The translations under genes were made by a program, and so were the position numbers. Below, piece after piece: positions 1 through 51,490 of a stretch of 64,000 nt of DNA. Source of the stretch: an uncultured Bacteroidales bacterium (lineage in GTDB: Bacteria > Bacteroidota > Bacteroidia > Bacteroidales > B18-G4); the NCBI GenBank assembly GCA_964487735.1, contig CAZASJ010000002.1:36362-100361 (forward strand), given 5' to 3'. The notes under the pieces were generated by a model. That model saw nothing but the letters and a program-made list of their open reading frames with translations, was not told the origin of the DNA and searched no databases. How positions within the stretch are numbered: the first letter of the stretch is position 1; each line of letters begins with the position of its first letter.

Positions 1-1803
1 AGCTACGGAAGTTTGCCCCATGATGGATTCGATTGATCTGCTAATGGAAGTGGGCGTAATACCATGTTTTTCATTGTATTTAAGCTGGGTGGTTCTTCTG
101 CGATCGGTCTCATCCATGGTCTTGCGCATCGAATCCGTGATTTTATCAGCATACATGATCACTTTGCTATCCAGGTTTCTGGCGGCACGGCCTGCGGTTT
201 GTGTCAATGACCTTGCCGATCTTAAAAATCCTTCTTTATCAGCATCCAGAATGGCCACAAGAGCAACTTCAGGCAGGTCAAGTCCTTCACGCAGGAGGTT
301 GACACCTATAAGGACATCAAATTCGCCCAACCTCAGTCCCCTCATAATCTCAACCCTGTCCAGGGTATCTACTTCAGAATGAATGTAGCGACACTTAATA
401 TTCAGGTTCATCATGTATTTGGTCAATTCTTCTGCCATCCGTTTTGTAAGGGTCGTTACCAGCACCCTGTCGCCCTTTTTGATCACTAAGTCGATCTGAT
501 CTAACAGATCATCGATCTGATTGGTGCTGGGCCTGACCTCAATTTCGGGGTCCAGGAGTCCGGTGGGCCGGATCAATTGCTCTACCACGATACCTTCAGC
601 ACGTTGTAGTTCATAGTCAGCCGGCGTGGCACTTACGTATAGTGTTTGCCCGGTGACTTGCTCAAATTCGTCAAATTTCAGAGGCCTGTTATCCATGGCT
701 GAGGGCAACCTGAAGCCATATTCCACAAGATTGTGCTTGCGCGATCTGTCACCGCCATACATGGCCCGGATCTGCGGAATGGTAGCATGACTTTCATCGA
801 TGATGAGTAGAAAATCATCAGGAAAGTAATCCAGCAGGCAAAATGGCCTGGACCCAGGTTCACGGCCATCAAAATAACGGGAATAATTCTCAATTCCTGA
901 GCAATAACCCAGTTCTCTCATCATTTCAAGGTCATAAGACACCCTGTCTTCTAATCTTTTTGCTTCCAGGTGTTTTCCGTTATCCTTGAAATATGCGACC
1001 TGCCGATTCATATCATCCTGTATATATACCAGGGCATCTTTCATTTTGTCTTTTGAAGTCACAAAAACGTTTGCCGGGTATATGGAGGCACTGTCAAGCA
1101 GGCTAATCCCTTTATTGCTAAGCGGGTCAAAGGTTTCTATACTTTCTACTTCTTCTCCGAAAAATATAATTCTGAAGGCAAAATCGGCATAGGCCGGATG
1201 AATGTCGATGGTATCACCGCGAACGCGGAATTTTCCCCTTCCAAAATCACTTTCTGTCCTGCTGTACAGGCTGTTTACCAGCTGAAAAAGAAATTTATTC
1301 CTGCTAACTTTCTCGCCTACTTTGATCTTTGTTACATTATGGGTGAAATCATCCGGGTTCCCTATGCCATAGATGCATGATACGGAAGAAACAACAATGA
1401 CATCCCTTCTGCCGGATAGCAGACTCGAAGATGCACTCAGTCTTAGTTTATCAATCTCATCATTAATTGATAGATCTTTCTCGATATAAGTGTTGGTAAC
1501 AGGAATATAGGCTTCAGGTTGGTAGTAATCATAATATGAAACAAAATATTCTACAGCATTTTCGGGGAAGAATTGTTTGAATTCACCATATAACTGCGCT
1601 GCCAGGGTTTTGTTATGACTTAATATCAGGGCAGGTCTGTTCAACTGCTGTAAGGCATTCGCTATGGTAAAAGTCTTCCCTGAACCGGTCACACCCAGGA
1701 GCACTTGTGACTGATCTCCCCGATTGACGCCTTCAACGAGTTGCTTTATTGCCTGTGGCTGATCTCCAGTCGGTTTAAAGTCGGAAACTAGTTTAAGATT
1801 CAT
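1..1803 (-). CDS. uvrB: Excinuclease ABC subunit B (UvrB), C-terminus cut by window edge
   Basis: Absent from the ORF track because there is no stop inside the window. My minus-strand translation from the ATG at 1803-1801 reads [99 protein letters not shown]... (Walker A GSGKT). It stays open for 601 codons to position 1. ATGA start/stop overlap with the upstream gene at 1800-1803. Confidence 0.93.
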
Positions 1804-5485: not shown

Positions 5486-5532
5486 TGTTTTTCTTGTTTC
5501 TTGTTATAGGTTGCTGGTTATCTATTTCTTAA

Positions 5533-5570
5533 TTCGTATTTCGTATTTCGTAGTTCGTAATTCATAGTTC
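5533..5570. repeat. Tandem heptanucleotide array, about 5.4 units (TTCGTAT TTCGTAT TTCGTAG TTCGTAA TTCATAG TTC)
   Basis: Read directly. 7-nt periodicity between the stop of the 5570-6319 gene and the start (5485) of the next rhomboid gene. Confidence 0.85.
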
Positions 5571-6319
5571 TAATACACCCCTTTTCTTTTCCAATAAACA
5601 ATCAGGAAATATCCAAATACCATCCCGCCCAGGTGAGCAAAATGGGCAATGCCGTCCTGGGTGCCGGTAACACCGAAATAAAGTTCCAGAACACCATATA
5701 TCATAACAAAATACTTGGCCCTGACGGGTATAGCAAAGAACACATAGATCATGGTATTCGGGAACATCATCCCAAAGGCAAGCAATATTCCAAAAACAGC
5801 TCCGGAAGCACCTACTGTGGGAGTATTGACAGTCTGGTAAAGTGATACCATATTGTCATATCCTTCCTGGGTCAGGCCTGCAATATTTGCCCAGAGTTCA
5901 GGAGCCGTATTGTAAACATGGCTGACTTGTTCGGGTGTAAGCAAGGCTTCCACAGATTGTATCCTGAAAAAGGCCACAATTAATTGTACAAGCCCGGCCC
6001 CAATGCCGGTAATCATATAAAAAGTGAGAAATCGCTTCGGTCCCCAAGCCTGTTCAAGGATACTTCCAAACATCCACAAAGCAAACATATTGAACAGGAG
6101 ATGGTAGAAACCACCGTGCATGAACATATATGAAACAAGCTGCCAGGATTGGAAATATTGAGACGTGAAAAAGTGAAGGCCCAGGATCTGGTACAGATTT
6201 GCCTGTTCCTTGAAAAGTTCTGTAATCAATAAAACCAAGGCATTGATAATAATGAGGTTAAGCACCACGGGTGGCAATCCCATGAAACCTCTTCTGCCGC
6301 TTTGTTGAAATCCACTCAT
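5570..6319 (-). CDS. Rhomboid family intramembrane serine protease
   Basis: 249 aa. Contains FMHGGFYHLLFNM, GASGAVFGILLA (GxSG) and AHLGGMVFG. Confidence 0.85.
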   Translation of the reverse strand: MSGFQQSGRRGFMGLPPVVLNLIIINALVLLITELFKEQANLYQILGLHFFTSQYFQSWQLVSYMFMHGGFYHLLFNMFALWMFGSILEQAWGPKRFLTFYMITGIGAGLVQLIVAFFRIQSVEALLTPEQVSHVYNTAPELWANIAGLTQEGYDNMVSLYQTVNTPTVGASGAVFGILLAFGMMFPNTMIYVFFAIPVRAKYFVMIYGVLELYFGVTGTQDGIAHFAHLGGMVFGYFLIVYWKRKGVY

Positions 6320-22550: not shown

Positions 22551-23228
22551 TTAGTCTGCCAGTAAATCAGGCCTGCGCTTTTTCGTTCTCTCAATGGCCT
22601 GTTCCAGCTTCCATTTATCAATGTTTTCCTGGTGGCCGGAAAGGAGGATTTCAGGGACATGAAGGCCACGGAATTCACGTGGACGCGTATAGACAGGAGG
22701 GGAGAGGAGATCGTTTTGAAATGAATCAGAGAGGGCAGAAGTTTCATCACCCAAGACCCCGGGAATAAGCCGTACAATGCTGTCGACAAGAACAGCAGCA
22801 CCGAGCTCACCACCGCTAAGTACATAGTCACCGATTGATATTTCTCTCGTAATAAACATCTCTCTGATCCTTTCATCTACACCTTTGTAATGGCCACAAA
22901 GCATGATGATATTTTCTTTCAACGACAGCTCATTTGAAATACCTTGATTGAGTAATTCTCCGTCAGGAGTGAGGAATATGACTTCATCGTATTCTCTTTC
23001 GGCTTTCAGTTTATCAAAGCATTTTGCGATGGGTTCTGCACTCATCACCATGCCGGCACCGCCCCCAAAGGCATAATCATCCACACTACGGTGTTTATCT
23101 GCGGTGAAATCACGAAGATCATGCAAATGTATCTCTACCAGCTTTTTATCCATGGATCGCTTGATAATGGAATGACCGAAAGGGCCGCTGAACATGTCGG
23201 GGAAAATGGTGATGATGTCGATTCTCAT
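22551..23228 (-). CDS. trmD: tRNA (guanine37-N1)-methyltransferase
   Basis: 225 aa. Begins [13 protein letters not shown] and contains [13 protein letters not shown] and [11 protein letters not shown]. Confidence 0.95.
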
Positions 23229-23236
23229 GCTTTAAG

Positions 23237-23250
23237 TGTTGAGTGTTGAG
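23237..23250. repeat. Heptamer array TGTTGAG x2; a third unit follows the inserted element at 23337-23343
   Basis: Read directly: aag TGTTGAG TGTTGAG [element] TGTTGAG tgg. Confidence 0.8.
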
Positions 23251-23336
23251 TCCCGACAAAACCCAAATGGTTGACTTGGTATTTTGTCGAGGATCCACGA
23301 AAAACAATGAATTCAAAGAATTCTGGTTTTTCGGGA
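23251..23336. mobile_element. MITE-like non-coding hairpin element, copy 1 (86 bp)
   Basis: Termini TCCCGAcAAAACC ... GGTTTTTCGGGA are inverted repeats (6 bp perfect, 12 of 13 extended). A perfect 7-bp direct repeat TGTTGAG abuts both ends. Two internal hairpins: CGACAAAA...TTTTGTCG and CGAAAAAC...GTTTTTCG. The right-hand ~55 nt closely match 51412-51462. Confidence 0.45.
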
Positions 23337-23457
23337 TGTTGAGTGGATTTCTGTATGATCAAATGCTCAATAACGAATACATTGTACCACATTCACTGCT
23401 ATGAACAATATTACTGAAAAACTTTGTAGGGGGAGAAAAAAAAAGGAAATAAAAAAA

Positions 23458-23493
23458 GGACTGTGCAAAAAGCAGACGGGAAAAGCACAGTCC
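23458..23493 (-). terminator. Rho-independent terminator oriented for the minus strand
   Basis: Stem AGGACTGTGC / GCACAGTCCT (10 bp) with a 16-nt loop. On the minus strand it is followed by TTTTTTTATTTCCTTTTTTTTT. Confidence 0.65.
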
Positions 23494-23682
23494 TTAACCA
23501 AATCTTATAACTTAATCAAAAAGCTGATGTAAAAATACAATCATTGAATCACATAAATCAAATATTCAACCTCACAAATACTCTACATACATTTCTGAAC
23601 AAAATTGAATTCTAAAATGTTACTTATATATATTTAATAATGAGCTGTTTATAAAACAGTAAGTAGTAACACGTAATTTATG

Positions 23683-30306: not shown

Positions 30307-30370
30307 ATGAGAATTCTACTGTTTTTATAATCAATATTAGAGGTGGTAAAGATAGGGAATTCTTCCTTTA

Positions 30371-30405
30371 TGAATTATGAATAATGGATTATGGATTATG
30401 GATGG
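30371..30405. repeat. Tandem heptanucleotide array, 5 units (TGAATTA TGAATAA TGGATTA TGGATTA TGGATGG)
   Basis: Read directly. Lies 65-99 nt upstream of the ugd start codon. Confidence 0.85.
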
Positions 30406-51381: not shown

Positions 51382-51390
51382 ACCATTCAG

Positions 51391-51462
51391 TCCCGATTCC
51401 TGGTCCCCGGGATCGAAGATCAACGAAAAACAATGAAATCAAGTATTTTTGGTTTTTCGGGA
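51391..51462. mobile_element. MITE-like non-coding hairpin element, copy 2 (72 bp)
   Basis: Termini TCCCGA ... TCGGGA. Flanking 7-mers are CATTCAG (51384-51390) and CATCCAG (51463-51469), 6 of 7 identical. The core TCGAAGATCAACGAAAAACAATGAAATCAAGTATTTTTGGTTTTTCGGGA aligns with 23287-23336. Confidence 0.45.
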
Positions 51463-51490
51463 CATCCAGTATCTAGTATCCAGTATCCAA
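51463..51490. repeat. Tandem heptanucleotide array, 4 units (CATCCAG TATCTAG TATCCAG TATCCAA)
   Basis: Read directly. Overlaps the last five codons and the stop codon of the NUDIX gene. Confidence 0.85.

Follow-up and report, generated by a model that had tools for sequence, protein, structure and literature searches.

The window analysed here, a stretch of 64,000 nucleotides from an uncultured Bacteroidales bacterium, carries just upstream of the trmD gene a sequence of 86 bp that folds into two tandem hairpins between TCCCGA and TCGGGA ends. This sequence, called copy A, is probably a non-autonomous selfish mobile double-hairpin DNA element, resembling the REPINs (doublets of repetitive extragenic palindromic, or REP, units), the Rickettsia palindromic elements (RPE) or the double-hairpin elements of mitochondria. 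The family to which it belongs has been shown to consist of precise, multi-copy, present-or-absent palindromic DNA insertions in which any hairpin interior is tolerated if it pairs, and it is apparently a large, undescribed family of small selfish palindromic DNA; literature searches found no description of it in Bacteroidetes or in the candidate phyla radiation. A preliminary description of the same DNA had interpreted copy A as similar to a miniature inverted-repeat transposable element (MITE) with a perfect 7-bp target-site duplication. Its non-coding and multi-copy nature, its hairpins and its inverted termini have stood, and its presence or absence among relatives also fits a small non-autonomous mobile element; the duplication has not stood.

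Precise insertion into older sequence

The evidence of mobility comes from the comparison of filled and empty sites. None of the six orthologous trmD loci, in which the gene order is kept and TrmD is 83–87% identical, has the element, and it is also missing from both loci syntenic with the OsmC/NUDIX gene pair (L103 and L105; L numbers designate loci outside the window), between whose counterparts the window has a second copy, copy B. The orthologs of the latter exhibit CATCGAC or AATCGAC arrays at the same spot. Since these orthologs hold arrays without the element, both window copies are lineage-specific insertions into older arrays at a unit boundary. The further copies and the empty sites in relatives that the preliminary description had suggested looking for were both found, the copy number being far beyond the two of the window.

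A filled and empty pair in unique coding sequence is provided by the groEL gene of a Patescibacteria contig, where 63 bp (L173:10570-10632, reverse strand) constitute an exact 21-codon insertion. The open reading frame (ORF) with the element matches solved chaperonins (E = 1e-156), the element-encoded residues appearing as an insertion, and in three relatives that are 91–95% identical the product is shorter by exactly 21 residues (548 aa vs 569 aa); the named relatives in the same search, 73–85% identical, belong to Minisyncoccota, Paceibacterota and other Patescibacteria. At the DNA level the empty site reads aaagaaaG/Cagatag (here and below, a slash marks the insertion point) and the filled site aaagaaaG(63 bp, TCCCGA..TCGGGA)Ccgataa. 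In-frame copies are found in Patescibacteria-like contigs (L173, L208, L110, L143, L135, L161/L118) within groEL, valS, gatB, uvrC, a Mur-ligase-like gene and a glycosyltransferase gene, to which they add 16–35 residues with peptides that depend on the frame (..NRGSS.., ..IEDPR.. or ..SRILD..). The length is a multiple of 3 in 31 of the 32 elements located within frames of at least 230 codons, and the exception (L148) has no hairpin symmetry. In Bacteroidales, 71 of 90 copies lie outside long open frames; copies also occur between divergent genes as well as convergent ones.

The perfect TGTTGAG repeats on both sides of copy A (23244-23250 and 23337-23343) are real, and comparable flanks are frequent: at least five of the seven flank bases are identical in 69% of 62 non-tRNA Bacteroidales copies, vs a background of 7.7%. 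In these copies both flanks are periodic, with an autocorrelation of 0.5 at lag 7 and 0.44 at lag 14. Among the tandem arrays in 688 kb of related Bacteroidales sequence, period 7 clearly predominates (period 7, n=159; period 8, n=73; period 6, n=13), and 98 of the 159 period-7 arrays are not near any element. Some bacterial genomes are known to contain heptamer simple repeats, according to the citation of Mrazek et al. (2007) in PMC4679880.

The empty locus L101, whose TrmD is 85% identical, reads aaaaCTCAACACTCAACACTCAAAACTTTAATCC-ATG, that is, CTCAACA CTCAACA CTCAAAA directly before the start codon. On its minus strand the window reads ccaCTCAACA(element)CTCAACACTCAACACTTAAAGC-ATG, with three heptamer units, the same count as in the empty locus; a related AACTCAA array without the element is present at L100. 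When the element lies in the D-loop of a partial tRNA gene (27 copies), the flanks match at just 0–2 of 7 bases, and among 115 distinct metagenome copies direct flank repeats are not enriched at any k = 2–10 and there is no periodicity. Given the unit count of L101, the tRNA flanks, the metagenome copies and the groEL pair, it is concluded that the element inserts without duplicating its target and that the 7-bp flanks are an older heptamer array. Copies lacking matching 7-bp flanks, which the preliminary description had listed among the results that would contradict it, therefore speak against the duplication and not against mobility. What the sites do have in common is the insertion point, located between a purine and a pyrimidine, usually G/C or G/T: the base before it (-1) is a purine in 62 of the 63 non-tRNA copies and the base after it (+1) a pyrimidine in 54 of them, and in the metagenome set 65% of copies have G at -1 and 64% have C at +1, with the symmetric consensus T-W-G/C-W-A.

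Two other ways of looking at the arrays were rejected. They are not a part of the element, in view of flanks that are direct and not inverted, of element-free arrays in orthologs and of array-free tRNA and coding copies; and the idea that they are excision footprints of a 7-bp duplication becomes needless once the absence of duplication is shown. The arrays persist at orthologous intergenic positions while the sequence of the unit drifts. Element-free arrays are found at two places in the window (5490-5574 and 30368-30403), at L065:5404-5701 and at many further loci, with units such as TTTCTTG, TATTTCG/TTCGTAA and TTATGGA and, in L065, CCCAAAC repeated 44 times. Elements in simple-repeat arrays mimic transposon footprints, which should serve as a warning for annotation.

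Architecture and folding of the family

The family was delimited by two exact-match scans, and the copy numbers are therefore lower bounds. The pattern used on the genome collection, TCCCGA-N-CGAAAAAC-N-GTTTTTCGGGA, fixes hairpin 2 of the resulting set (set 1), which comprises at least 94 loci, nearly all of them in metagenome-assembled genomes (MAGs) of Bacteroidales/Bacteroidota, plus one isolate, Carboxylicivirga fragile N1Y90 (L028); several genomes carry multiple copies. The pattern used on metagenomes contains the termini and the centre only (TCGAGGATCCTCGA), so that the centre of this set (set 2) is fixed by the query, and it yielded at least 120 loci with elements of 48–105 bp, the smallest being two mini-hairpins. 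Every copy has the terminal inverted repeats TCCCGA/TCGGGA by construction, as both patterns demanded these ends. The hosts are Bacteroidota and Patescibacteria (candidate phyla radiation), and a near-invariant 14-bp core is common to both phyla.

The copies follow the plan TCC-(CGA..hairpin..TCG)-AGGATCCT-(CGA..hairpin..TCG)-GGA, which in the sorted copies takes the modular form TCC-(CGA..stem..loop..stem..TCG)-AGGATCC(T/A)-(CGA..TCG)-GGA. The half-sites TCC/CGA ... TCG-A-GGA/TCC-T-CGA ... TCG/GGA (slashes here are boundaries between parts) are invariant; both hairpins are free in sequence and length, and hairpin modules are shuffled among copies. Hairpin units were scored as doublets in 150 of 184 cases, and most of the 34 “solo” units are doublet halves whose partner failed the criteria.

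In 71 distinct sequences, positions 4–8 of the hairpin-1 stem form Watson-Crick pairs in 86–100% of cases vs 40–55% when partners are shuffled, and all four pair types (AT, TA, CG and GC) are present. In RNA structures G:U pairs are tolerated and A:C pairs are not; in the hairpin-1 stems, G:T pairs (10) and A:C pairs (12) are about equally common. This parity, together with folding that is equally good on either strand and with copies in both orientations, points to a constraint that acts on the stems at the DNA level, as a palindrome. A single half-site is repeated four times, as the termini, the centre and the bases of the hairpins, which makes two single-strand folds possible. Judging by the base sequence, the element could form a nicked dumbbell in which the GGA/TCC centre lies opposite the point of entry of the flanks; it can also form a four-way junction in which the termini are paired and the centre makes its own hairpin, a form read from the sequence and seen in the computed fold of copy B.

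The 86-bp element with two tandem hairpins given in the preliminary description is borne out by sequence and folding. As single-stranded DNA, copy A forms the same two tandem hairpins on both strands (-21.2 kcal/mol; z = -5.0/-5.2), and as RNA the two strands have z = -3.6 and -5.7. Its termini are a perfect 6-bp inverted repeat; with a 1-nt indel, but not otherwise, their pairing reaches 12 of 13 bases. A 19-nt core has 2 matches in the window, 0.16 being expected, and an nhmmer profile built from 53 copies of other genomes recovers copy A (E = 6.8e-18) and copy B (E = 1e-9), with no third match within the window. Copy B, also noted in the preliminary description, is degenerate. It shares with copy A the termini, the left-hand sequence AGTCCCGA and the right half, TCGARGATCMACGAAAAACAATGAAWTCAA..GGTTTTTCGGGA; its centre is mutated (TCGAAGATCAACGA) and its folding is weak (z = -2.0 and -0.6), so that it looks decayed. 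The genes that surround it, of the OsmC and NUDIX families, are convergent.

The order at the trmD site is catg ctttaag, TGTTGAG TGTTGAG, copy A (TCCCGACAAAACC...GGTTTTTCGGGA), TGTTGAG, tgg. Copy A lies 23–108 nt upstream of the trmD ATG, within a 518-bp divergent spacer between trmD and an S8 peptidase gene, and in this sense it does belong to the trmD 5' region, as had been proposed. Given that relatives do without the element, it probably rides in the 5' untranslated region as a tolerated passenger, with no regulatory role, and its likely effect on trmD is small, an additional double hairpin in the 5' leader. trmD is essential, and therefore the element would not be a strong terminator in that orientation; the intrinsic-terminator scan found none at copy A, whose T-runs sit within stems with no U-tail. 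No perfect TAnnTTTG box was seen by eye inside copy A, and a sigma-70 promoter scan is uninformative for Bacteroidota. Rfam gave nothing at gathering threshold for the element, only chance-level matches (E >= 0.77). A conserved regulatory RNA at orthologous trmD loci, contemplated in the preliminary description as the alternative, is contradicted by the absence of the element from all six. The positions of these features are collected in Table 1.

Table 1. Position of the elements and of neighbouring features; coordinates are those of the window unless an L number is given.
Feature	Position	Strand	Basis or remark
Double-hairpin element, copy A	23251..23336, 86 bp	.	Sequence, folding, profile match, absence from six orthologous trmD loci
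Copy A: TCC, then hairpin 1 CGACAAAACCCAAATGGTTGACTTGGTATTTTGTCG	23254-23289 (hairpin)
Copy A: centre AGGATCCA	23290-23297
Copy A: hairpin 2 CGAAAAACAATGAATTCAAAGAATTCTGGTTTTTCG, then GGA	23298-23333 (hairpin)
TGTTGAG x2, left of copy A	23237..23250 (23237-23243, 23244-23250)	+	CTCAACA on the trmD strand
Third TGTTGAG (23337-23343) and partial unit TGG, right of copy A	23337..23346	+
trmD coding sequence	22551..23228	-	Pfam PF01746, homologs; ATG 22 nt past copy A
Double-hairpin element, copy B, short-hairpin-1 subtype	51391..51462, 72 bp	.	Absent from orthologous L103, L105
Heptamer unit CATTCAG, left of copy B	51384..51390	+
Heptamer array CATCCAG TATCTAG TATCCAG TATCCAA, right of copy B	51463..51490	+
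tRNA-linked GIY-YIG cassettes	L015, L040 (e.g. L040:4732-5479), L052, L053, L026, L119, L159, L204, L225
Cobalamin riboswitch RF00174	47561-47772	+	93.5 bits; ordinary, unconnected with the element

A different feature of the trmD region is a block of ~85 nt, cagctttttgattaagttataagatttggttaaggactgtgcttttcccgtctgctttttgcacagtcctttttttatttcct, within 23444-23588 (minus strand), which is near-invariant in all seven orthologous trmD-upstream regions, in contrast with TrmD itself, just 83–87% identical. A promoter-like box precedes the block, which closes, on the trmD strand, with a GGACTGTGC/GCACAGTCC hairpin and a subsequent T7 run. Rfam has no family that matches it; from its sequence features, the block is a candidate small RNA or trmD leader/attenuator. 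The closest named relatives of TrmD are labelled “Bacteroidales bacterium”, and the proteins of the window include type IX secretion (T9SS) sorting domains.

tRNA fragments and a small GIY-YIG nuclease

A GIY-YIG nuclease is the only protein family that recurs near copies of the element, its gene adjoining it in 10 loci of set 1 and 6 loci of set 2. The protein is a stand-alone catalytic domain of 78–90 aa (Pfam PF01541, E = 5e-17). In the tRNA-linked cassettes, the order of the parts is a promoter-like box, tRNA positions 1 to ~17–19, the element, the remainder of the D-arm up to roughly the anticodon, a short leader, the GIY-YIG ORF and, lastly, an intact copy of the same tRNA. The gene starts 16–22 nt downstream of the element in nine of these cassettes and 50 nt downstream in the tenth (L026). 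The cassettes, which occur in Bacteroidales and Patescibacteria-like contigs, are built on tRNAs for Pro, Met/fMet, Ala and Glu; in the tRNA-Pro cassettes the last codons and the stop of the GIY-YIG ORF lie in the 5' part of the intact tRNA. Several variations on this arrangement exist: in L090 the layout is reversed, so that the intact tRNA comes at the start and the interrupted partial copy at the end; tandem amplification has produced two units in L040 and three of the ORF-less tRNA-Ile units of L204; and short-spacer forms, such as L011, resemble cassettes that have lost the ORF.

Throughout, the element sits in the D-loop of a non-functional tRNA copy, and rarely in the T-loop (L086, L028). 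An intact copy of the same tRNA is always found 23–64 nt away (~300 nt with a GIY-YIG gene), downstream or upstream. By our own count, the two orientations of the element relative to the tRNA fragments occur 21 and 9 times. The possibilities that the element is a tRNA intron, or that it was inserted into a live tRNA gene, were discarded, as its removal in silico never restored a tRNA. Since the whole of a tRNA fragment should be neutral ground, we infer that there is a real target specificity for the D-loop.

The leftover D-arm seems to act as a general hotspot for the insertion of palindromes. A different, perfect palindrome of 20 bp (CCTGCCTGCCGGCAGGCAGG) occupies the D-arm of partial tRNAs beside GIY-YIG genes at L201:~300-330 (reverse strand) and L037:~2520-2545; the former is a bystander cassette with this palindrome, and L037 holds both the palindrome and the element. 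A more complicated rearrangement is found at L086:300-1100, a mosaic around tRNA-Phe with several partial D-arm, anticodon-arm and T-arm fragments in both orientations, in which elements lie in a D-loop and in a T-loop and a further, truncated copy is also present. Literature searches found no description of tRNA-linked GIY-YIG cassettes.

Possible mechanisms and related systems

Copy A landed after the split from the relatives whose TrmD is 83–87% identical; its site is a boundary between units of the older CTCAACA array, 22 nt before the start codon of trmD. A second copy, now decayed, landed in another heptamer array. The movement of the element would depend on a structure-specific enzyme that acts in trans and recognises the folded element and the conserved half-sites. 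The best candidate for this enzyme is the small stand-alone GIY-YIG nuclease, a doubtful but possible assignment; a functional link between the element and the nuclease is plausible, and the protein would be suited to a structure-specific role because it has no DNA-binding domain. A bolder and rather unlikely proposal is that both together constitute a previously unrecognised bacterial mobile system that has crossed between Bacteroidota and Patescibacteria. According to it, a nuclease related to the Slx1/UvrC type would recognise the four-way junction or dumbbell and excise or insert it precisely at purine/pyrimidine steps, the tRNA-linked cassettes would be autonomous “master” copies, and the hundreds of solitary copies, that of trmD included, would be non-autonomous riders. 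Local spread between like arrays by gene conversion may supplement movement by the nuclease or by an HUH transposase (considered below), given that element subtype and heptamer type correlate.

Several observations weigh against a mobile element or against the part assigned to the nuclease. The window encodes no mobilising enzyme and, as the preliminary description had already pointed out, no transposase. A pattern search of JGI metagenomes for the empty allele of the trmD site gave 0 matches, and no excision intermediates or within-population polymorphism were found; nor was an autonomous form, in which an ORF would lie between hairpin units. The apparent preference for arrays may be partly survivorship, if only neutral landing sites persist. 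The loci were chosen for having the element, so the association with GIY-YIG genes does not come from an unbiased sample and could stem solely from the location of both at tRNA-gene fragments; in viral contigs, the GIY-YIG homologs (8 loci) have neither element nor tRNA beside them. In addition, the tRNA-Pro cassettes (L015, L053, L052, L040) share one architecture across species, with compensatory changes in the stems, which could reflect a function in place or gene conversion and not repeated transposition; their orthology is hinted at only by an ABC-F gene common to four loci.

The classical explanation for such a sequence would be a MITE, that is, a deletion derivative of a DDE insertion sequence that moves by cut-and-paste and generates a fixed 7-bp target-site duplication. 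The inverted termini, the multiple copies and the matching flanks agree with it, but those flanks are heptamer tandem arrays that exist without the element in orthologs and throughout these genomes, there is no duplication in the tRNA D-loop copies, the metagenome copies or the groEL pair, and an insertion sequence with TCCCGA ends, the parent suggested in the preliminary description, was not seen in ~1.4 Mb flanking the copies. This origin is therefore regarded as extremely improbable. A functional cis-acting structure that is not mobile, such as a terminator, an insulator, an mRNA-stabilising or processing hairpin or a protein-binding site at trmD and other gene boundaries, is highly unlikely too. 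It would account for A-run/T-run stems that resemble bidirectional terminators, for the location of copy B between convergent genes, for the covariation of the stems and for the persistence of the tRNA-Pro/GIY-YIG cassette copies across species. However, it is at odds with the absence of the element from all six trmD orthologs and both copy-B orthologs, with its occurrence in either orientation at tRNA fragments and between divergent as well as convergent genes, with the in-frame insertions in groEL, valS, gatB and uvrC, and with the lack of a U-tail, of an excess of G:T over A:C pairs and of any Rfam match; furthermore, a strong terminator 22 nt before the start of an essential gene would be expected to be harmful.

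It is also conceivable that no dedicated enzyme is involved, and that the element is copied by homology-driven gene conversion or replication template switching between like heptamer arrays or tRNA D-arms. Subtypes track the type of heptamer (TGTTGRG in the window, L005 and L007; TTCTTA/TTCCTTG in L046, L065 and L094), insertions are in phase with the array and without duplication, and hairpin modules are shuffled between copies. Yet the exact TCCCGA...TCGGGA boundaries stand beside flanks of unrelated sequence, some of it unique coding sequence where flanking homology is lacking, the homology of the D-arms is a mere 8–15 bp, and the spread across phyla is left unexplained. The groEL pair, located in unique sequence, argues against this as the sole mechanism, which is very unlikely, and a local contribution may remain. 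Less remote, though still unlikely, is movement as single-stranded DNA in the manner of REPINs, driven by a single-copy HUH tyrosine transposase elsewhere in the genome, either a REP-associated tyrosine transposase (RAYT) or an IS200/IS605-like TnpA. The doublet of two inverted hairpin units (150 of the 184 units), the conserved bulge in each stem, the lack of target duplication and the extragenic, high-copy distribution in Bacteroidales fit this scheme, such properties having been described for REPINs and IS608 ends (PMC3116915; PMC3733652). Against it, the units, which run from TCC(N)CGA to TCG(N)GGA, lack a GTAG or CGTC tag; the preference at the flanks is symmetric (T-W-G/C-W-A) and not a one-sided target tetranucleotide, which argues mildly against the scheme; and tblastn detected no Y1-transposase homolog in ~0.7 Mb around copies, a small sample searched with two approximate queries and thus a weak argument. 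RAYTs are not known from the tiny genomes of Patescibacteria, which also counts against it.

Small palindromic repeats, among them REPs, RPEs and organellar hairpin elements, are widespread, and their mode of movement is mostly unknown. The family presented here could make the question of mobility testable, as it offers exact boundaries, a core that spans two phyla, clean filled and empty pairs and one recurrent protein neighbour, and the tiny Patescibacteria genomes offer few candidate enzymes. There are also consequences for annotation: in-frame copies lengthen essential proteins in MAGs, and copies in tRNA fragments mark a tRNA-targeting GIY-YIG cassette.

Among known systems, the REPs and REPINs mobilised by RAYT transposases (Bertels & Rainey, 2011, PMC3116915; Di Nocera et al., 2013, PMC3733652) are similar in their inverted, head-to-head hairpin units, their high copy number, their non-coding and mostly extragenic, sometimes intragenic, location, the lack of a classical target duplication and a presumed mobilisation in trans. 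The element differs from them in that it has no GTAG/CGTC tag, its hairpins abut at a near-invariant GGATCC centre and have variable interiors, no RAYT was found in the ~0.7 Mb searched with approximate queries, and the same core is present in two distant phyla. The one-sided tetra- or pentanucleotide target of IS200/IS605-type elements is not encountered either, the flank preference of the element being symmetric, purine/pyrimidine. DDE-derived MITEs, such as Correia/NEMIS, RUP and Nezha (listed in PMC3733652), are likewise small, non-coding, multi-copy sequences with inverted termini, but they have fixed-length duplications and the ends of a parent insertion sequence, neither of which the element showed (the parent being sought in ~1.4 Mb around copies).

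The RPEs, also mentioned in PMC3733652, are palindromic selfish DNA inserted in frame in housekeeping genes, to which they add a peptide segment. This likeness holds for the family (GroEL, ValRS, GatB, UvrC) and not for the two intergenic copies of the window. The element is 48–105 bp long, is unrelated in sequence and is also found in simple-repeat arrays and in the D-loops of tRNA fragments; RPEs are reportedly of ~100–150 bp and specific to Rickettsia, as Ogata and colleagues are said to have established in 2000. An especially close likeness is that of the mitochondrial double-hairpin elements of Allomyces and of related repetitive hairpin-forming elements, with two consecutive hairpins, mobility, no flanking duplication and both intergenic and intragenic locations, which are mobile between close relatives and not removed from transcripts in the account of Paquin, Laforest & Lang (2000) given in PMC2800124. 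Those elements are organellar, G+C-rich and unrelated in sequence, so that no homology is claimed; literature searches found no bacterial counterpart of them.

With regard to the nuclease, the free-standing GIY-YIG homing endonucleases of phage T4 (Seg proteins), of which SegB is placed in the T4 tRNA gene region (PMC13096335; PMC2988022), share with the cassettes a small GIY-YIG gene next to tRNA genes and the local tandem amplification of the flanking segment (two units in L040, three in L204). The cassette proteins differ in that they consist of the catalytic domain only, are chromosomal and are accompanied by a partial tRNA duplicate that carries the element in its D-loop. Set beside all these systems, the family is unusual in its cross-phylum core, in its landing in repeat arrays, tRNA D-loops and in-frame coding sites, and in its GIY-YIG neighbour.

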